This document shows, piece after piece, positions 15,354-24,657 of a stretch of DNA of 64,000 nt. Numbering within the stretch: position 1 is the first letter of the stretch; each line of letters opens with the position of its first letter. Position numbers and translations under genes: made by a program. Origin of the DNA: Bernardetia sp. OM2101 (GTDB lineage Bacteria > Bacteroidota > Bacteroidia > Cytophagales > Bernardetiaceae); contig NZ_CP170094.1 in NCBI RefSeq assembly GCF_042180575.1, positions 1,784,604 to 1,848,603 of the forward strand, in the 5' to 3' direction. Under the pieces are notes generated by a model. The model worked only from the letters and a program-made list of their open reading frames with translations. It did not search any database and had not been told where the DNA came from.

Positions 15354-16997
15354 ATGCAAAACAATTATTATTTCATTCGTGCGCTTTCTTTGGAACTTTC
15401 AAAGCAGATTATCGGATTAGAAATTGCGACTATTTTTTCGCAAAATAAAGATGAATTATTGATAGGATTAATTGATAATAACAATCCAGAAACAGAATTT
15501 TGGATTCGTGCTACCTTTACCCCCGAACTAACAACACTTTCTTTTCCTCAAACTTTTGCACGAGCAAAACGAAATAGCATCGACCTTTTTGATTCTATTA
15601 TCGGAACAAAAATCACAAGTATTCGTCAGTTTAATAATGAACGAGCTTTTGGGATAGAACTAAAAAATGATAAAAACGAAGATTTTACTTTGTTATTCAA
15701 ATTATTTGGCAACCGTTCAAACATTATTTTATTTTCTCAAGATGAGAATTCAAAAAGTGAAAATTCAGAACAAGAAATTGAAGCTATTTTTCAACATAAG
15801 CTACAAGCCGATTGGGAAATTATTTATGAAGATTTGGATAGAAGTATAGAACAGGAAAAAGAAGATTTTATAGAAAATGGAATCAAGAAAACCTTTCCTA
15901 CTTTTGGAAAAGATGTTTTGACGTATTTGAAAAGCAAGGTAGGCAATAAAGTAGAAAATGCAGAAGACAGAGAAAATTATTGGAACGAAATCGAAAAATT
16001 AATTACTTATTTTGATGAGATAGAAAAGCTAGACTTTTATGTTTTCTTGAAAAAGAATGAAGTAAAATTATCTATTCTTAATCCAAAAGAGTTTATTAAA
16101 GATGCTGAAATTCTACACAAAACAGACAATGCCATTGAAGCATGTAATTTGTTTTACATGGAATTTTCAAGGCGTTATTATTTAGGCAAAGAAAAAAATG
16201 CAGCACTTAAAGCCATAGAAAAACGTCATCGCCAAACTCAAAACTATATAGACAAGACACTCAAAAAGATAGAAAAAGTAGAAAATACGATGCGTTACGA
16301 AGAATTTGGACATATTTTGATGGCAAATCTTCACGCTGTAGAACCTCGCTCAAAATCAGTAGAGCTTTTTGATTTTTATACCAACAAGCAAATCACAATT
16401 CCATTAAAAGACCATTTATCAGCACAAAAAAATGCAGAGCTTTTTTATAGAAAAGGAAAAAATCAAAAACTAGAAATTGATAATTTGTATCAAAATTTAG
16501 ATAAAAAAGAAGAGCAATTACGCCTTTTTGAAAGGCAGTTGGAGGAGATAAATAATTTTGAATCGCTCAAAGAAATGCGAAAGTTTTTGAAGGATAATAA
16601 AATTAAGGTAACCAATTTACAAGAAAACGAACCCGATGAATTACCTTTTAAAGTTTTTGAATATCAAGATTTTCAGATTTTGGTAGGAAAAAATTCTAAA
16701 AACAACGACTTACTTACTCAAAAATATGCTTACAAAGAAGATTTATGGCTTCATGCTCGTGGCGTAGCAGGTTCGCATGTCGTGATAAAATATAGAGCAG
16801 GAAAACCATTTCCAAAATCGGTCATCGAAAAAGCAGCCAGTTTAGCAGCCTATTATTCCAAGCGAAAAACGGATTCGCTTTGTCCTGTCATCGTAACACC
16901 TAAAAAATATGTCAGAAAACCAAAAGGAGCAGCACTTGGCGCAGTTGTCGTGGAAAGAGAAGATGTGGTAATGGTTGAACCGAAAGGATTTGAGTAA
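15354..16997 (+). CDS. NFACT-family RNA-binding protein (FbpA/RqcH-like ribosome quality control factor)
   Basis: 547 aa. C-terminal NFACT-R/DUF814 signature …LWLHARGVAGSHVVIKY…CPVIVTPKKYVRKPKGAALGAVVVE…. Confidence 0.75.
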   Translation: MQNNYYFIRALSLELSKQIIGLEIATIFSQNKDELLIGLIDNNNPETEFWIRATFTPELTTLSFPQTFARAKRNSIDLFDSIIGTKITSIRQFNNERAFGIELKNDKNEDFTLLFKLFGNRSNIILFSQDENSKSENSEQEIEAIFQHKLQADWEIIYEDLDRSIEQEKEDFIENGIKKTFPTFGKDVLTYLKSKVGNKVENAEDRENYWNEIEKLITYFDEIEKLDFYVFLKKNEVKLSILNPKEFIKDAEILHKTDNAIEACNLFYMEFSRRYYLGKEKNAALKAIEKRHRQTQNYIDKTLKKIEKVENTMRYEEFGHILMANLHAVEPRSKSVELFDFYTNKQITIPLKDHLSAQKNAELFYRKGKNQKLEIDNLYQNLDKKEEQLRLFERQLEEINNFESLKEMRKFLKDNKIKVTNLQENEPDELPFKVFEYQDFQILVGKNSKNNDLLTQKYAYKEDLWLHARGVAGSHVVIKYRAGKPFPKSVIEKAASLAAYYSKRKTDSLCPVIVTPKKYVRKPKGAALGAVVVEREDVVMVEPKGFE

Positions 16998-17062: not shown

Positions 17063-19981
17063 TTGGTTAAAAATATAGCTTTATTATTCTTTTTGTCTAT
17101 TTCATTTTTAACACAAGCACAAGAACCTGTATCTATACACCTTTCAGAAAAAAGTGGACTACAGTATAAAGAGTTCTATGATATCTTTGAGGATGATGAG
17201 GGTTTTATTTGGCTATGTGCAAATAAGGGATTACTTAGATATGATGGTAGAGAATTCAAATTATATAAACACTCAAAACAACGGGGATTATCCGTTTTTG
17301 GAGTAAAACAAGACAGTTTAGGACGTATTTGGTGTCAGAATATTTCAGGACAATTCTTCTATGTACAAGATAATGAAATGCACTTATTTATAGATGTAAA
17401 AGAACACTTAAAAGGAGAGTTACCCAGCTTTATCATTAATAATAATTCTTTATTGCTTTTTTGTGGGTCTAAAATTTATAAAATAAATCTAAATACTAAA
17501 CTTATAGAAGTTCCTTGGATCAATAATAGTAGTGTCAGTAGTCCTTTAGAAACGCACGAGGGTATATTCTTTACCAATGAAGATTCTTTAGTACACATCT
17601 CTCCAAAAGGTAATTTTGAAAAAATACTATCTACTCATCTTCCAGCAAAAAGTAAAAATGGAGAAACAATTACTTTTGGAAAGGCGAAAATTTTTAAAAG
17701 CACTTCATCACTCTTTTTATTAGAATCTAGGTTTGGTTTAAATACTTTTTTTCGTTTTAATATTTCGAAGAAAAATCTAACTAAGATGAAAGGTGTTGAG
17801 ACTTTAGAAGATAAAATAATATATACTAGTTTTGATAATAAAAATGAAATTTGGTTTGGCACAAACCATGGCGTTTGGATTTATGAAATTAAAAACGACC
17901 AATTTCAATTTAAAAAGCAATTTCTCAAGGATAAAAAAATCTCTAAAATAGTAAAAGATCAAGAAGGTAATTATTTCTTTACAACATTACACAATGGGAT
18001 TTATGTAATCCCCAATATGCATATCGAAGACTGCCAAATTTCAGAAGAAAACAAAAATATAAATAGTTTAGACATCATAAATGATAACACTTTAGTTTTT
18101 GGAACAAATGCTGGAAGTGTAGGAATTTATAATACAACAACAAATAAACATACACACATAGAAACAGGAACAAAAGGACATGTTTCTACACTTAAATACC
18201 ATAAAAAAACCAATGTCATTTTTATAAGTAAATCTTACTCTGCCTTTACATTAAACTATAATAATTTTGAATTAAAGAAGGTTAAAACTAGAGGTTTTCT
18301 TAATGCAAAAAGTCTAACAATATTAAAAAATGATGATTTGCTTTTAACAGATTACAAGGCTGTAAGAGTATTTAAAGAAGGTAATCTTGATAATGATACT
18401 CTTATTTATAGCAAAAGAACTTATGCATCACATTATAATAAAGATAAAAATGAAGTTTATATAGCATTCGTAGATAATTTAGTAAAATATGATAGTGCTT
18501 GGAATCCTACAGTTATTCAACACAAAAACAAGGCTCTTTTAGGTAAATCAATAACACAAATGTCTAATGGAATAGTGTGGTTTGCAAGTTTAAAAAATGG
18601 CATCTATGGAATTAAAAATGATTCTATACTATATCATTATACTACCAAAAATGGATTAATGTCTAATAATATAGAGCAAATTGAGGCAGATAAAAATACA
18701 TTATGGATAGCTTTAGATAATAGTGTGCAAATATTTGATTGTGCAACTCAAAAATTTAAGACATTAACTAAAAGAGACGGTATTATATCGTATGATATTT
18801 CTGGTATAGAAATCCTAAAAAATAAAGTATATCTTTCCTCAGATGAAGGATTATTATCCATAGATAAACGCCAACCATTTAAAAAACAAAATAATGAAAT
18901 ATATTTTAATGCTTTCGAAATAAATGATAGAGACACATTAGTTACCTCAATTTATAAATTAGCTCATGACCAAAATACAATTAAGATTGGTTTTAATGTG
19001 AATGGCTTCTCCTTTAATCATAAAGGAAGATATAAATACAGATTAAAGGGACTAAATGATAATTGGTTAAGTACTGACATGGGAATTAATTCTGTGAAAT
19101 ATAATAGTTTACCAGCAGGTAATTATACATTTCAAGTACAACCTGTTTTAGAAAATCAAACCGAGAATGGAGTTATAAAAGAACTTTTGATTGTGATATA
19201 CAAACCTTTTTGGCAAACATGGTGGTTTAGACTAGGAGGGCTTATACTAATTTTTGGAGGTACTGTTCTGTTCTTCAAAAAGAAAATTAGAAAGAAAGAA
19301 AAAGAACGTATTGCCGAGTTGGAAAAAATATCTTTAGAAAAAGAACTCATGGCTATAAACTTAACAGCATTGCGTTCACAAATGAATCCTCATTTTATTT
19401 TCAATGTCTTAAACTCTATTCAAGATTTAATACTACAAAAAAACACAGAGGCTTCTTATGATTATATTGTCACTTTTTCAGAATTAATACGCAATGCGTT
19501 AAGCTATTCCAATGAAGATTTTATTCCTATAGAAAAAGAATTGAAATTTTTAAATGTTTATTTGAAATTAGAAAAACTCCGATTTGGAGATACATTTAAT
19601 TATACTGTTAATTCTGATATCCAAGAGTTAATAAAAGTTCCTTCTTTATTGATACAACCTTTTATAGAAAATGCCTTAGTTCATGGCTTAATGCATAAAA
19701 AAGGAGAAAAAGAATTAAATATTAGCTTTGAATTTAAGGAAGAGTGTTTAAAATGTATCATTACCGATAATGGAATAGGACGAAAAAAGGTAAATGAAAT
19801 ATACACTCGTCAGAAGAATAAAAACGAATCATTTGCATTATCAGCTATCAAAAAAAGATTAGATATTTTTAAAAAGAAATACAATAACAATCTCGGCTAT
19901 GTTATTGAAGATTTATATAGTCATGAAAAAGATACAGGTACAAAAGTAATTTTGACATTACCATTTGACTATGATTTTTAG
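17063..19981 (+). CDS. sensor histidine kinase with periplasmic beta-propeller/Y_Y_Y region and LytS-type kinase core
   Basis: 972 aa with a signal peptide. One TM helix (WWFRLGGLILIFGGTVLFF). His_kinase motif NPHFIFNVLNSIQ and a C-terminal HATPase region. Confidence 0.8.
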   Translation: MVKNIALLFFLSISFLTQAQEPVSIHLSEKSGLQYKEFYDIFEDDEGFIWLCANKGLLRYDGREFKLYKHSKQRGLSVFGVKQDSLGRIWCQNISGQFFYVQDNEMHLFIDVKEHLKGELPSFIINNNSLLLFCGSKIYKINLNTKLIEVPWINNSSVSSPLETHEGIFFTNEDSLVHISPKGNFEKILSTHLPAKSKNGETITFGKAKIFKSTSSLFLLESRFGLNTFFRFNISKKNLTKMKGVETLEDKIIYTSFDNKNEIWFGTNHGVWIYEIKNDQFQFKKQFLKDKKISKIVKDQEGNYFFTTLHNGIYVIPNMHIEDCQISEENKNINSLDIINDNTLVFGTNAGSVGIYNTTTNKHTHIETGTKGHVSTLKYHKKTNVIFISKSYSAFTLNYNNFELKKVKTRGFLNAKSLTILKNDDLLLTDYKAVRVFKEGNLDNDTLIYSKRTYASHYNKDKNEVYIAFVDNLVKYDSAWNPTVIQHKNKALLGKSITQMSNGIVWFASLKNGIYGIKNDSILYHYTTKNGLMSNNIEQIEADKNTLWIALDNSVQIFDCATQKFKTLTKRDGIISYDISGIEILKNKVYLSSDEGLLSIDKRQPFKKQNNEIYFNAFEINDRDTLVTSIYKLAHDQNTIKIGFNVNGFSFNHKGRYKYRLKGLNDNWLSTDMGINSVKYNSLPAGNYTFQVQPVLENQTENGVIKELLIVIYKPFWQTWWFRLGGLILIFGGTVLFFKKKIRKKEKERIAELEKISLEKELMAINLTALRSQMNPHFIFNVLNSIQDLILQKNTEASYDYIVTFSELIRNALSYSNEDFIPIEKELKFLNVYLKLEKLRFGDTFNYTVNSDIQELIKVPSLLIQPFIENALVHGLMHKKGEKELNISFEFKEECLKCIITDNGIGRKKVNEIYTRQKNKNESFALSAIKKRLDIFKKKYNNNLGYVIEDLYSHEKDTGTKVILTLPFDYDF

Positions 19982-20083
19982 ATGATGTGATGGTTGGAGT
20001 TATCCGAAGGAGTTTGATTAGTTAGGAATTGGGGAATAGAGATCGGGAATTAGGAAATGACTGTTTTTAGGTAAATCAAATAC

Positions 20084-20135
20084 TGTCACCAGTGGTGACA
20101 CAATCAGTTTTTATAAAACTCGCACCAGTGGTGCG
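20084..20135. promoter_or_regulatory. two tandem hairpins sharing the CACCAGTGGTG core upstream of the ROCO-TIR gene
   Basis: tgtcaccagtggtgaca at 20084-20100 and cgcaccagtggtgcg at 20121-20135. Each has a 6-7 bp stem and 3-nt loop, with centres 36 bp apart. Confidence 0.5.
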
Positions 20136-20216
20136 ATAAATTGAAGACAAAAAATTATTACAATTAAAAAAGAAATAGTATTTTAGTGAGATAAAAAATA
20201 CTTACTCAATAAGAAC

Positions 20217-22898
20217 ATGAAACCTAAAGAAATTATAGAATTAGAAAATCTATTATCTAAGAGATTAAATAAATCAATAGAGTTAGTACAAAAGACTTTA
20301 GATGAAATGAAAAACCATGCAGGTAGTTTTGCATACTCTCTAAACTCTTCAAATGAAGTGAATGGTCTCGGTTTTCTTTTTGATAAAGTGAAAGATATAA
20401 GTTTTGTTAAAGCATTTCCAAAGTTAGAAGTTTTAGATTTAAGCGATTGTGAACTACAAAACCTTCAAGATGAATTATTTGAATTGAAAGAACTTACTCA
20501 TTTGAGTATAAGTGCTAATCCTATTTCTCATATTCCTAAGGATATTTTAAAATTAGAAAAACTAGAATATTTCAATTGTGGATTTATAAATGGTAATTTT
20601 TCTCCTGCTATAGAATTTCCTAATTTTTTACAAAATCTAAAAAACTTGAAACACCTCTTAATTCATGGTAATGGATTAACAGAAATTCCTCAATGGATAT
20701 ATAAACTAAAAAATCTAGAGAGTCTAAATATTTATAATAATCATATTACAACTATCAGTGAAAAAATACTAAACCTTGATAAACTCAATGACATAAACAC
20801 TTTATATTTAGAAATAACTTCTCCTCCTCCTAATATTGTAAAACTAGGAGCAAAGGCTATAAAGGCTTATTTTAGAGGGTTAGAGTTAGGTTATATTGAA
20901 AATAATCATATCAAAATTATACTTGTTGGAAATGCTCATGTAGGCAAAACGATGTTATTCAATTATCTTACTAAAGCAAAAACCCCTATTGATTTTGCAG
21001 GTTCTACACATGGAATAAGAGTTGGAAATTTTAATATTGAAATAGAAAAAAGTGAAGCAGTAAACGTAAATCTATGGGACTTTGGAGGTCAAGAATATTA
21101 TCATGCTACACATCGTTTATTTTTTTCTGATAATGTTTTGTATTTACTTCTTTGGGAACAGGAAACTGATAAATATGGAAGCTATACATTCACTAGCGAA
21201 CAAGATACTATTATATCTCAACAAGGATTACAATATTTCAATCCTCCTATCTCTACAGAAATTACTACAGAAGGATTTCCTGTAGTTGATTGGGTAAGTA
21301 ATATAAGATTTTTTTCAAAGGATAGCCCAATATTATTAGTTCAAAACAAAACTGATATTCAAGAGCCTAAATATAGATTTTCAGAGTTAGAAGAAGATAT
21401 TCCTCATACTAGAGTTAGTCTAAAAAAATTAGAAGGTATTAACGAATTAGAAAAACTTATAAAAAGCTCAATACAAAATCTAAAACACTACAAATATAAA
21501 ATCCCAGTTTCTTGGCAGAAAGTAATTGAATTTATCAGTAGCTTAGGAAATAATTATTTTGGAATACGGTATGATTCATTAGAAAGGGAAGTTCAATCAT
21601 GGAATCAAGAAATGATAGATGATTTACCACAAATACTAAATTTTTATCACGAAAGAGGAGATATTCTTTGGATAAAAAATAACGAATTACTTAAAAAGTA
21701 TATATTTCCTCAACCTTGGAGAATAACAAATACGATTTATAGCATATTAAATAGAAAAGTAGCTGATAAAGATAAGGGCGAGTTTACTAGAGAATCTATA
21801 TATAGTTTGTATGGAAATCAAAAAGAACACGTAGACTTTTGTTTGGAACTCATGAAAGAATTTGAAATTATTTTCAGTATAAAAAATGAAGATAAAATAT
21901 TTATCGCTCCTCAATATCTAAATAAAAAAATACAAGACAAAAAACGTTTAGAAGACAATATTTACTATACAGAACCACAAAAAGTTTTTACTCTGCATTA
22001 TCCTACTTTTATGCCTAAAAGTATTTTTACTCGCTTTATCTGTAATTATGGAATGTATGCTGATAAAATGATGTATGGAAAAGAAGAGATTTATTTTGCT
22101 AAAAATAAAGTTGGAAGCTACGTAACTTGTGATTATGAAAAAAAAGTTATTACTGTAAATGTCCAAAATCAAAATGATACTCTAACTAAAGAAATTTTTG
22201 ATGAGTTATATCGTATAAGTGGTGGAAAAGATAACTTGCAACTTTATTCAGAAGCAAAAAATCGTTTTGTAAGTCTATCAGACATACGAGAATATGAAGA
22301 CACTTATAAAAATGACTTTTGGTTTATGTTTAAAAGTTCACAAGAAAATAAAATTATGAAAAAAGAAAAAAATAAAATAAATATTTTTGTTTCTTATTCA
22401 AGTAGAGATAGAGAATTAAGGGAACTTTTAGTAGAAGGAGTTCAAAAACATTTAACTCATCGCCAAAACTTTGAATATGAACAATGGACAGATGCAGAAA
22501 TTGATTTTGGTTCAGATTGGAAAGAAACGATTGAAAAAGCATTAAAAGAAAGCAACGTCGCTATTTTATTGGTTAGTGCTAATTTTGCAGCTTCTTCATT
22601 TATAAATGAAAATGAATTGACAGCATTTTTTGAAAGACAAAAAGCAGGAGGGTATTTAATTTTACCTGTGTTAGTTATGAAATATGATTTTTTACAATTC
22701 GAAAAGTTGTCAAAAATAAATTTCTTTAAGACCTATTATAGCGAATATGGATTTACAAAACCTATAGAAAGAAACAAATTACTTCCTTTTGATAAACTAG
22801 CAGAAAATGAAAATACAACTAATGGACAACTAAATTTATACTATGAAAAATTAGCTGATTTTATTCATACAGCCGTTTCTAATAAATTCAAATCCTAA
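20217..22898 (+). CDS. LRR - Roc (Ras-like GTPase) - COR - TIR multidomain protein (ROCO-TIR), candidate NAD-targeting defence effector
   Basis: 893 aa. LRR consensus around aa 60-215 (LEVLDLSDCELQNL…LTHLSISANPISHIP…). GTPase motifs: G1 GNAHVGKT, G3 DFGGQ, G4 NKTD (about aa 228-400). COR-length linker. C-terminal TIR domain (INIFVSYSSRDRE…AILLVSANFAASSFINENEL). Confidence 0.8.
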   Translation: MKPKEIIELENLLSKRLNKSIELVQKTLDEMKNHAGSFAYSLNSSNEVNGLGFLFDKVKDISFVKAFPKLEVLDLSDCELQNLQDELFELKELTHLSISANPISHIPKDILKLEKLEYFNCGFINGNFSPAIEFPNFLQNLKNLKHLLIHGNGLTEIPQWIYKLKNLESLNIYNNHITTISEKILNLDKLNDINTLYLEITSPPPNIVKLGAKAIKAYFRGLELGYIENNHIKIILVGNAHVGKTMLFNYLTKAKTPIDFAGSTHGIRVGNFNIEIEKSEAVNVNLWDFGGQEYYHATHRLFFSDNVLYLLLWEQETDKYGSYTFTSEQDTIISQQGLQYFNPPISTEITTEGFPVVDWVSNIRFFSKDSPILLVQNKTDIQEPKYRFSELEEDIPHTRVSLKKLEGINELEKLIKSSIQNLKHYKYKIPVSWQKVIEFISSLGNNYFGIRYDSLEREVQSWNQEMIDDLPQILNFYHERGDILWIKNNELLKKYIFPQPWRITNTIYSILNRKVADKDKGEFTRESIYSLYGNQKEHVDFCLELMKEFEIIFSIKNEDKIFIAPQYLNKKIQDKKRLEDNIYYTEPQKVFTLHYPTFMPKSIFTRFICNYGMYADKMMYGKEEIYFAKNKVGSYVTCDYEKKVITVNVQNQNDTLTKEIFDELYRISGGKDNLQLYSEAKNRFVSLSDIREYEDTYKNDFWFMFKSSQENKIMKKEKNKINIFVSYSSRDRELRELLVEGVQKHLTHRQNFEYEQWTDAEIDFGSDWKETIEKALKESNVAILLVSANFAASSFINENELTAFFERQKAGGYLILPVLVMKYDFLQFEKLSKINFFKTYYSEYGFTKPIERNKLLPFDKLAENENTTNGQLNLYYEKLADFIHTAVSNKFKS

Positions 22899-22901
22899 CT
22901 A

Positions 22902-22938
22902 AAAACATGCACCCACTAATCCAAAAAGCCATAAATCA
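22902..22938. repeat. 37-bp direct repeat, copy 1 (aaaacatgcacccactaatccaaaaagccAtaaatca)
   Basis: Starts 4 bp after the ROCO-TIR stop codon. Contains a 13-codon remnant ORF MHPLIQKAINHYE. Confidence 0.85.
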
Positions 22939-22940
22939 TT

Positions 22941-23909
22941 ATGAATAAAGATTTTGAAGAAGTCATACATTTAATTTCAGATGCTAAAAACCAAACCAAT
23001 TCTATTATAAATCGTGCTTTGGTAGAATTGTATTGGAAAGTTGGAAAATATGTTTCCCTAAAAACAGAAAATGTAGAAAATGCTAATGCTACAATAAAAG
23101 AGTTAGCTCAATATATAATGTATAGAGAACCTCATTTGAAAGGATTTAATGGACGTGGTTTGTGGCGAATGAAACAGTTTTATGAAGAATATTCTCAAAA
23201 TTCGACGTTGTCACCACTGGTGACAACGATAAGCTGGACAAATAATTTACTCATTTTATCCAAAACAAAAACGGTAGAAGAAAAGGAGTTTTACATCAAA
23301 AAATGTATAAAAGAAAGGTACAGCAAACGAGAATTAGAAAGACAAATTGATAGTGCTTATTATGAAAGAACAATGCTTAGTAATACGCAAAGTAGCATAA
23401 CAGCAGAAGAACTTTATCCACGCATAAAGGAAGTTTTTTTGGATAATTATGTAGTAGAATTTTTGAATTTGAAAGATGATTTTTCTGAATTTGACTTACA
23501 AAAATCTATTCTCAAACATCTCAAAAAATTTGTTTTAGAGTTTGGAAAAGATTTTTTATTGATAGATGAAGAGTACAAAGTACAGGTAGGAAATCAAGAT
23601 TTTTATATTGACTTATTATTTTTTCATAGAGAATTACGTTGCTTGGTGGCTCTTGAACTCAAAATTACAGACTTCAAACCTGAATATTTAGGTAAAATGA
23701 ATTTCTATTTAGAAGCCTTAGACAGAAATGTAAAAAAGGAACACGAAAATCCAAGTGTAGGAATTATCCTTTGTAAAACTAAAGATAGTGAAGTAGTAGA
23801 ATATGCACTTAGTAGAAACTTGTCTCCTACTTTAGTTTCTGAATACGAAACCAAATTATTAGATAAAAAAATACTTCAACAGAAATTACATGAACTATTT
23901 GAAAATTAA
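22941..23909 (+). CDS. DUF1016/YhcG-family PD-(D/E)XK nuclease domain protein
   Basis: 322 aa. N-terminus …NRALVELYWKVGKYVS… and C-terminal restriction-endonuclease-like core …VALELKITDFKPEYLGKMNFYLEALD… are characteristic of the YhcG family. Confidence 0.8.
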   Translation: MNKDFEEVIHLISDAKNQTNSIINRALVELYWKVGKYVSLKTENVENANATIKELAQYIMYREPHLKGFNGRGLWRMKQFYEEYSQNSTLSPLVTTISWTNNLLILSKTKTVEEKEFYIKKCIKERYSKRELERQIDSAYYERTMLSNTQSSITAEELYPRIKEVFLDNYVVEFLNLKDDFSEFDLQKSILKHLKKFVLEFGKDFLLIDEEYKVQVGNQDFYIDLLFFHRELRCLVALELKITDFKPEYLGKMNFYLEALDRNVKKEHENPSVGIILCKTKDSEVVEYALSRNLSPTLVSEYETKLLDKKILQQKLHELFEN

Positions 23910-23914
23910 CCTTT

Positions 23915-23951
23915 AAAACATGCACCCACTAATCCAAAAAGCCCTAAATCA
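23915..23951. repeat. 37-bp direct repeat, copy 2 (36/37 identical to copy 1)
   Basis: Begins 6 bp after the DUF1016 stop. Provides the start codon and first 8 codons of the 70-aa ORF at 23920-24132. Confidence 0.85.
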
Positions 23952-24132
23952 ATTAAATTCCAACAATTACAGAGGATATTTTGAAGAAATGGATATGATT
24001 ATTCCTTCTACTATGAGTACAAATTATCAAGAACTCAAAGGCTTTTTTGTAGCAGGAATAAAAAATGAAGAGTTTAAAGAAGCCTTGAATGTTTTTGCTT
24101 TGGAAGTGGATGGAAAGCTATATAAAAGCTAA
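23920..24132 (+). CDS. small hypothetical protein (70 aa)
   Basis: ORF MHPLIQKALNQLNSNNYRGYF…; its N-terminus is duplicated upstream of the DUF1016 gene. Followed by a terminator. Confidence 0.3.
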   Translation: MHPLIQKALNQLNSNNYRGYFEEMDMIIPSTMSTNYQELKGFFVAGIKNEEFKEALNVFALEVDGKLYKS

Positions 24133-24140
24133 TAAAAAAA

Positions 24141-24181
24141 CTGTCAAGACACTTTTAAAGTGTCAGACAGTTAGTTTTTTT
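24141..24181 (+). terminator. rho-independent terminator (hairpin plus T7)
   Basis: ctgtcaagacacttttaaagtgtcagacag followed by ttagttttttt. A second related hairpin at 24207-24234 probably serves the minus-strand DUF779 gene. Confidence 0.5.
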
Positions 24182-24243
24182 GAAACAAGAAGTTTTGCTT
24201 TTTAAATTGTCTGACACTCTGAAGTGTCTGACAATGAAAAATA

Positions 24244-24657
24244 TTACACTGCTGTTTCCTCCAAATATTCCTCTCCATTTTTGACAGGAATCAAATTTTG
24301 AGTTTCTTCTTCTGTAAAAAGTCTGGATTTTACAATAAAACGATAGCCCAAAGGAATCTCTAACGAAAAACTAGAACCTCGTCCTTCTGTAACATCAATC
24401 GTAAGATGCGTATGTTTCCAATAATCAAATTGAGATTGGTTCATAAAAAAATCGCAGCCGTGAATCGTTCCGACCCAAACATCATTTGAACCGACTTTAA
24501 ACTCTCCTTTTGCAAAGCACATAGGCTGTGAGCCATCACAACAACCTCCACTTTGATGGAACATTAGCTCTCCATTTTCTTCTCTTAACTCATCAATAAT
24601 TTTTTTAGCCGAATCAGTTGCAATAACTCTTTGTGTATTTTCTGATGTATTTTTCAT
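24244..24657 (-). CDS. DUF779 family protein (aldehyde dehydrogenase-associated)
   Basis: 137 aa. …FHQSGGCCDGSQPMCF…GTIHGCDFFM… pattern. Genetic linkage to an ALDH gene is the usual context for this family. Confidence 0.65.
   Translation of the reverse strand: MKNTSENTQRVIATDSAKKIIDELREENGELMFHQSGGCCDGSQPMCFAKGEFKVGSNDVWVGTIHGCDFFMNQSQFDYWKHTHLTIDVTEGRGSSFSLEIPLGYRFIVKSRLFTEEETQNLIPVKNGEEYLEETAV

Follow-up and report, generated by a model that had tools for sequence, protein, structure and literature searches.

What does a short sequence that recurs on both sides of a gene tell about how that gene and its neighbors came together? The question is raised by a 37-bp direct repeat bracketing a predicted nuclease gene of the DUF1016/YhcG family, immediately downstream of a ROCO-TIR gene, in a 64-kb stretch of DNA (the whole stretch is here called the window) from the genome of a Bernardetia (Cytophagia). 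The original prediction regarded the repeat as a 3-prime module shared by the two genes, i.e., as the boundary element of a gene cassette that carried the nuclease gene. The best explanation that we can offer, with a probability of roughly 65%, takes the repeat for a scar of recombination, situated where a variable hot spot ends, rather than a functional boundary element; it would have been left when alternative fillings of the hot spot were stacked in tandem by recombination.

The 37-bp repeat and the small gene at its right-hand copy

The 37-mer, AAAACATGCACCCACTAATCCAAAAAGCC[A/C]TAAATCA, has one copy at 22902-22938 and another at 23915-23951; the two lie on the + strand and are identical at 36 of 37 positions. 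No further copy with three or fewer mismatches is present in the 64-kb window, and the number expected by chance is 0 (100 shuffles). Copy 1 begins 4 nucleotides (nt) past the end of the stop codon of the ROCO-TIR gene (22896-22898) and opens a 13-codon open reading frame (ORF), MHPLIQKAINHYE-stop, at 22907-22948. Copy 2 begins 6 nt past the DUF1016 stop codon (23907-23909) and opens an intact ORF of 70 codons at 23920-24132. In these respects the original prediction was accurate, as it was in naming the two genes as ROCO-TIR and DUF1016/YhcG types, which Pfam and PADLOC bear out. The repeat was said to cover the first 8 codons of the small ORF; in fact, it comprises a 5-nt leader and the first 32 nt of coding sequence, or ~11 codons. 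The features of the locus are as follows.

15354..16997, + strand: NFACT-family gene (Pfam NFACT_N and NFACT-R_1/2), conserved left border of the hot spot
17063..19981, + strand: histidine kinase (HK) gene of the Y_Y_Y/His_kinase type (Pfam), cargo 1
19982..20021, + strand: scar 1, in which the final ~40 nt of the NFACT gene, stop codon included, recur in degenerate form (alignment to locus L011)
20079..20140, + strand: two tiny DUF1016 remnants, hp1 (20084-20100) and hp2 (20120-20136), each corresponding to the hairpin of the family
20217..22898, + strand: ROCO-TIR gene, LRR-Roc-COR-A/B-TIR (Pfam/PADLOC), cargo 2
22902..22940, + strand: scar 2, which is repeat copy 1, a truncated copy of the small ORF comprising the leader and the first ~11 codons
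22907..22948, + strand: 13-codon mini-ORF arising from copy 1, the stop of which overlaps the DUF1016 start (ATGAATAA, 8-nt overlap; direct reading)
22941..23909, + strand: predicted DUF1016/YhcG PD-(D/E)XK nuclease-like gene, PADLOC candidate PDC-S02, cargo 3
23206..23228, + strand: conserved hairpin in the DUF1016 ORF, CGTTGTCACCA-C-TGGTGACAACG, coding for LSPLVTT (RNA fold and covariation)
23915..23951, + strand: repeat copy 2, the functional start of the small ORF, ancestrally contiguous with the DUF1016 3' end
23920..24132, + strand: 70-codon conserved gene, right border of the hot spot (homologue clusters)

The assignment of the nuclease-like gene is based on the Pfam domains DUF1016_N (E = 3e-35) and YhcG_C (E = 2e-52) and on the PADLOC model PDC-S02 (E = 6e-118). 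Its scores for the two family models (PF17761 and PF06250) are 121.7 and 177.5 bits, respectively, both above the gathering cutoffs of 32.8 and 32.5.

The 70-codon ORF has homologues in 12 clusters (68 to 93% identity), which are Bernardetia-like and of which those named by organism are Bernardetia, and its N terminus, MHPLIQKA, is invariant among them. Since this ORF is a real gene with homologues, the 37-mer is the 5' end of a conserved gene. The gene product is predicted to form four helices (AF2 model, pLDDT 95); it had no match in Pfam and none among PDB folds at an E value of ≤0.001, and exact look-ups of the small-ORF and DUF1016 proteins of the window returned no match, and no record of the B. 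litoralis HK protein was found either. The 37-mer does not appear to be a dispersed repeat: it has no third copy in the 64-kb window, and in every relative examined (12 related loci), it is present in a single copy and always at the start of the small ORF.

Were the 37-mer to serve a site-specific cassette system as its attachment site or boundary, like an integron attC site or the core of a tyrosine recombinase att site, one would expect direct repeats around a single promoterless ORF and a variable content of the site, and both are seen here, as with integron cassettes. Nevertheless, this reading is largely refuted and we consider it very improbable. The 37-mer is coding sequence of a conserved host gene and is found only there in the related loci; its region lacks secondary structure (fold of -1.6 kcal/mol, z of 0.17) and thus any attC-like hairpin; and no integrase, transposase, or recombinase domain, IntI included, was identified among the ORFs from 11.5 to 30 kb of the window. 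In addition, it bounds no other cargo gene at the hot spot, the scars at the left border derive from the NFACT gene, and other DUF1016 loci have repeats of 51 to 423 nt. An Rfam scan of 19900-24400 gave no match. The proposed role as a shared 3-prime module or cassette boundary finds no support.

The AT-rich composition of the DNA might speak for a chance resemblance, an in situ slippage duplication, or an assembly artifact, but any of these is scarcely credible. No copy is expected by chance, and the 976 nt between the copies contain DUF1016 domains only and amount to a complete gene with an orthologue at the same locus. Moreover, the HK protein of the window has an exact match (100% identity) in Bernardetia sp. 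OM2101, and the source is likely to be a finished assembly.

A variable interval between NFACT and the small ORF

The NFACT gene precedes the small ORF in all relatives, and the interval that separates the two is variable. NFACT orthologues adjoin it in L001 to L012, L094, and L096 (L numbers are labels of the comparison loci). The contents of the interval are as follows.

L094: an interval of 28 nt only
L007: an interval of ~100 nt, including a DUF1016 fragment
L003, L004, L005, and L009: a DUF1016 remnant bearing deletions at its 5' end and internally
L001, L006, and L010: Uma2, on the opposite strand
L002: an intact DUF1016 gene and Uma2
L008: an ORF without an assigned family
L012: HK and SIR2
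L096: HTH and RelE/RelB-like genes and Uma2
L011: a ROCO gene
Window: HK, ROCO-TIR, and DUF1016 genes in tandem

The NFACT/small-ORF interval of Bernardetia is a variable hot spot, of which we found no description in the searched literature. Hot spots of defense genes and other variable genes lie between conserved core genes. The interval resembles them in having two conserved borders and diverse defense-like cargo (TIR, SIR2, Uma2, RelBE, and DUF1016) that differs among close relatives, and differs from them in that the window displays several stacked fillings with visible seams. The junction of NFACT and HK is the same in L012 (88 to 89% nucleotide identity), and HK is missing from L001, L002, L003, L007, L011, and L094.

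The predicted empty site was looked for in the same loci. In L011, the NFACT gene is followed by the same two small DUF1016 fragments, the ROCO gene, 8 nt, and the small ORF, with a single 37-mer and no DUF1016 gene. L011 is therefore the empty site that had been predicted, and the DUF1016 gene is variably present. The 5' 2.1 kb of the ROCO gene is 93.9% identical between the window and L011; nothing in L011 corresponds to the TIR part (22341-22898).

The empty site by itself does not tell which block came in. The DUF1016 3' end, the 10-nt spacer, and the small ORF are continuous with the junction in L003 (116-nt alignment; 0 of 2,000 shuffles as good), and because the window and L003 junctions are contiguous, the placement of DUF1016 beside the small ORF is the old arrangement. 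The DUF1016 gene has an orthologue at the same locus in L002 (87% amino acid and 84.9% nucleotide identity) and a remnant in L003. Its identity to L002 is that of the backbone (83 to 88%). Against L011, by contrast, the ROCO block reaches 93.9%, well above the 85 to 87% of the backbone, for which reason the ROCO block, rather than the DUF1016 gene, may be the incoming part. The variable base of the repeat is A in copy 1, as in L011 and most other alleles, and C in copy 2, as elsewhere only in L001, the closest backbone relative. The segment from 19982 to 22940, which has a short piece of a border gene at either end, looks like one contiguous piece of another allele lineage. On these comparisons, the ROCO block with its 37-nt tail is probably the incomer and the DUF1016 gene the resident. 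The earlier suggestion that the nuclease gene was inserted as a cassette has, then, the empty site in its favor and the ancestral DUF1016/small-ORF junction, together with the possibly incoming ROCO block, against it.

The same observations bear on a further reading, in which a trans-acting transposase moved a nonautonomous element and thereby duplicated its target site. A short insert with direct repeats is what such an event would leave; still, it is extremely improbable here. A duplication of 37 bp far exceeds the usual 2 to 14 bp, no inverted repeats were found at the ends of the insert, the right-hand copy is ancestrally contiguous with DUF1016, and the two copies differ in an allele-specific manner. 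No further copies of the insert with 37-bp duplications were seen at other sites. The terminal inverted repeats of transposons and insertion sequences are likewise missing, and the even longer duplications at other DUF1016 loci are also unlike them.

A second scar of the same kind lies at the other end of the ROCO block. Scar 1 begins 8 nt after the HK stop codon and continues into NFACT-downstream sequence of the L011/L007 type (73 nt aligned with the NFACT end and downstream region of L011; 0 of 2,000 shuffles as good). L012 has NFACT-HK and the 8 nt past HK in common with the window and then diverges. Both novel joints display microhomology. At the HK joint, ATGATGTG after HK (common to L012) corresponds to AGATGTTGTG in NFACT. 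At the DUF1016 joint, copy 1 reaches 22940 (39 nt) when compared with the "AINH" allele of the small ORF (L093), which it matches through "aaatcatt," and catt-TAGAATCAAA of that allele corresponds to tt-ATGAATAAAG at the DUF1016 start. A weaker similarity extends for another ~15 nt leftward of each repeat copy. The metagenome scan with DUF1016 described below yielded no Bernardetia relative (best match, 63%), and hence no closer donor for the left joint was found.

Each seam is explained best if two alternative forms of the locus underwent an unequal exchange. On one side, the exchange would have been resolved by homology or would have been contiguous in the donor already, as for DUF1016, spacer, and small ORF. 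The other side would have been joined illegitimately at a few bases of microhomology, in this case at the DUF1016 ATG. If the illegitimate joint fell slightly inside the border gene, cargo would be added and not replaced, and a short duplicated gene end would stay behind. Two alternative fillings would in this way be joined in tandem by one homologous and one illegitimate crossover. The route may have been one-ended homologous recombination combined with microhomology joining, perhaps after uptake of DNA from a related strain.

Such events have a known counterpart in natural transformation, for which de Vries and Wackernagel and also Prudhomme et al. reportedly described homology-facilitated illegitimate recombination in 2002. 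The locus has two features of that process, namely, microhomology at the novel joint and unbroken homology on the other side, and foreign DNA would similarly have been added beside a homologous anchor. Unlike here, the classical cases delete recipient DNA and leave no short duplication.

Several points weigh against this history. The immediate precursor arrangement was seen in no genome found, the order and direction of the events are not fixed, and a single base within the 37-mer is informative. Within the ROCO block, the hp1-hp2 part resembles L001 more than it does L011, so the locus would be a mosaic of several exchanges. Both new joints lie 0 to 8 nt from ORF ends, and the joints of unrelated DUF1016 genes are ORF-tight as well, which is more orderly than random illegitimate joining and hints at selection or a dedicated mechanism.

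Nobusato et al. reportedly described, in 2000, an insertion with long target duplication of restriction-modification genes. The locus in the window is probably a further example of this known type of insertion, its repeat being no cassette boundary element. Its repeats are 37 to 39 bp long, L011 has one copy between the ROCO gene and the small ORF, and the insert of 976 nt holds DUF1016 domains only, with no mobility domain from 11.5 to 30 kb. The repeat spans a start codon, and the cargo is a predicted restriction-type nuclease. These properties compare with the criteria of Furuta, Abe, and Kobayashi (2010), which are repeats of >30 bp that are unique in the genome, an insert of <20 kb that holds restriction and/or modification genes but no integrase, transposase, or phage genes, and a single-copy empty site in a relative, and with their observations that the repeats often cover the translation start or stop of a neighbor and that a solitary mcrA gene can be the insert (PMC2853133). 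The locus differs in that its cargo is a solitary DUF1016 gene and not a proven restriction-modification system (no methylase gene lies beside it within the insert), in that its duplication can be traced to an overlap of two hot-spot versions, and in that the resident partner may be the nuclease gene. Although on record since 2000, insertion with long target duplication still lacks a mechanism, and the window would be a traceable example of how it can arise. The cassette-array reading would at the same time be replaced by a concrete history in which a defense-type hot spot grows by stacking, with one readable seam per event.

A functional pairing of the ROCO-TIR and DUF1016 genes, which had also been suggested, is without comparative support, because each gene occurs without the other (L011 and L002, respectively). 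The spacings between ROCO-TIR, remnant ORF, DUF1016, and small ORF are 8, -8, and 10 nt, and the mini-ORF ends 5 nt past the DUF1016 ATG. Since the end of the 13-codon ORF overlaps the DUF1016 start, the latter may now be translated by coupling to the initiation region that copy 1 took from the small ORF; the overlap is typical of translational coupling.

Some further observations concern the cargo and the left border. The C-terminal effector of the ROCO gene has been swapped, the window carrying TIR and L011 (11389-12161) an unrelated segment of ~137 amino acids without a Pfam domain. The ROCO gene of L011 is broken into three ORFs, which may be due to indel errors in long reads. In L096 (2021-2178), there is an independent tandem duplication of 79 nt comprising the NFACT 3' end and a terminator hairpin; its copies differ at 3 positions, it starts within 6 nt of the NFACT remnant in the window, and it counts in favor of the history proposed above. 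There may be a preferred breakpoint ~45 nt before the NFACT stop codon. The Uma2 gene is flanked by similar stretches of ~21 to 26 nt (DUF1016 3' end plus spacer) in L001 (7140-7165 and 7975-8000) and L002 (7113-7140 and 7975-8000); these duplications were marginal (shuffle P of 0.03 to 0.06) and were set aside as evidence.

Flanking duplications and an internal hairpin in the DUF1016 family

DUF1016/YhcG genes are among the commonest uncharacterized nuclease genes of restriction-modification and defense islands, and the searched literature described no activity for them. Two properties of the family, flanking duplications and an intragenic hairpin, were more surprising than the repeat itself.

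A metagenome scan yielded 80 unrelated loci (L013 to L092) with DUF1016 genes 47 to 63% identical to that of the window. In about a dozen of these, direct repeats of 51 to 423 nt that are 77 to 97% identical bracket the gene (for example, spans 7822-9145 in L059, 7873-9072 in L037, and 7528-9416 in L085). In a census of de-duplicated genes with 300-nt flanks, which was accompanied by an ungapped test, repeats of at least 50 nt were found at 8 of 59 DUF1016 genes and at 0 of 198 other ORFs of the same loci. DUF1016 is thus significantly enriched for flanking duplications across unrelated metagenomes. The controls were mostly core genes and were not matched for accessory genes, so the enrichment may reflect no more than that DUF1016 has often been gained recently. 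What is duplicated is the 3' end of hsdR (L059 and L040), murF-alr (L037), a type IIG methylase gene (L027), or queH-GNAT (L085), or else an upstream leader (L054 and L039). The inserted unit departs from the ORF by only -3/+1 nt in L059, -6/+11 nt in L054, and -2/+5 nt in the window. No flanking repeats were found at Escherichia coli K-12 yhcG or at eight plasmid-borne DUF1016 genes. The cassette idea is supported for the family, whose unrelated members are often bracketed by duplications, though not for the 37-mer as a boundary element.

The hairpin in the DUF1016 coding sequence is previously undescribed, deeply conserved, and covarying. In the window, it is a perfect palindrome with 11-nt arms (RNA fold of -15.5 kcal/mol, z of -4.2) immediately ahead of the conserved (I/L)(S/P)W codons, and throughout the family the codons that form it are palindromic. 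At least 7 of 9 pairs form at a fixed center in 66 of 80 genes, compared with 0.6% at control positions, and there are ten distinct perfect hairpin arms in the family. The covariation score is 0.306, compared with 0.111 in shuffles (0 of 500 reach the observed value) and at most 0.08 with the partners slid. The encoded residues change pairwise (P/V, T/L, A/R, and T/W), and the third codon positions are fixed. Mismatches are G.T in 20 cases and A.C in 4, an asymmetry which argues for selection on the single-stranded sense strand, either mRNA or coding-strand DNA. On account of the same asymmetry, the palindrome was dropped as a candidate double-stranded DNA site of a symmetric dimer.

The conservation spans Bacteroidota, Actinomycetota, and E. 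coli. In yhcG of E. coli K-12 (L099, 8205-8237; 30% identity), the corresponding position is occupied by a perfect stem of 15 bp (-25.2 kcal/mol, z of -7.4), and the hairpin is also present in genes of 28 to 36% identity from Cupriavidus, Deinococcus, Citrobacter, Calothrix, Rhodococcus, and Methylobacter. Its occurrences include L002 (6424-6442), L013 to L092, and L100 to L106. No description of it was found in Rfam, PDB, or the searched literature. Candidate roles are those of a host-independent brake on the expression of a promoterless nuclease gene and of a cis site for the gene's own protein; yhcG of E. coli K-12 lends itself to a direct test.

DUF1016 remnants start or stop at the hairpin. 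In the window, hp2 is identical to the DUF1016 coding sequence of L002 over 29 nt; in L003, hp1 continues into the DUF1016 remnant; and hp1 is still a perfect palindrome in five diverged Bernardetia lineages. Solitary hairpins within gene fragments of 12 to 100 nt are found in intergenic regions upstream of DUF1016 genes or in their place (L001, 7086-7140; L011, 9130-9186; L003, 7762; L007, 9940; L036, ~1458; and L060, ~1589). Apart from the solitary remnants in L036 and L060, extra copies of a gene's own hairpin in the DUF1016 flanks (up to 1.5 kb on each side, repeats included) were no more frequent than in the null.

These findings raise the question of whether the DUF1016 gene is itself mobile. 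It could be a self-mobilizing element of a single nuclease ORF comparable to a free-standing homing endonuclease, the nuclease breaking DNA near the end of a neighboring gene and repair copying in the nuclease gene with a replacement end, so that the displaced end would remain as the repeat. An arrangement of this kind was reportedly described by Paquin, Laforest, and Lang in 1994 in mitochondrial atp6 of Allomyces, where the insert comprises a free-standing homing endonuclease gene with a replacement gene end. The order of gene end, nuclease ORF, and displaced remnant recurs in L059, L040, L037, L027, and L085, and the window is its mirror image; the likeness of DUF1016 to these endonucleases is one of gene layout. 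Besides the excess of duplications over other ORFs, the unrelated nature of the duplicated targets, and the nearly exact ORF size of the inserted units (L059, L054, and window), this reading is favored by the conserved cis structure within the family ORF and by the solitary hairpin fragments upstream of intact genes in L036 and L060. At the Bernardetia locus, hp1, hp2, and the intact gene would be three generations of DUF1016, and presence and absence of the gene are polymorphic at one site (L011 and window). Double-strand breakage was suspected as a common cause by Furuta et al. (PMC2853133). On the other hand, the DUF1016 gene of the window appears resident and not incoming, HK, which is no nuclease gene, has the same type of scar, and the enrichment is subject to the choice of controls noted above. 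Flanking repeats are missing from all 8 plasmid loci and from E. coli yhcG, and neither nuclease activity nor a target is on record for any member of the family. We regard homing-like mobilization as unlikely, though less so than the other alternatives to the stacking of fillings by recombination.

A broader speculation, which we judge to be quite doubtful, is that DUF1016/YhcG genes are autonomous single-ORF selfish elements, rather than or besides being defense genes. They would spread into the ends of neighboring genes with long target duplications of variable length, their only cis signal being the sense-strand hairpin, which would act as the site of action of their own nuclease or binding domain or as a host-independent expression brake. 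If so, the scar in the window and the hairpin remnants on the NFACT side would be traces of repeated gain and decay of the element.

Two minor observations may be added. In some pairs of DUF1016 genes (L061/L073, L072/L074, and others among L013 to L092), the N-terminal parts before the hairpin are identical and the C-terminal parts are 13% diverged, a pattern suggestive of intragenic recombination. In the window, several copies of the motif GTGTCAGACAG/CTGTCTGACAC are present in direct and inverted orientations at 24141-24241, where the small ORF faces a convergent DUF779 gene, and this cluster may be a terminator or a small repeat element.

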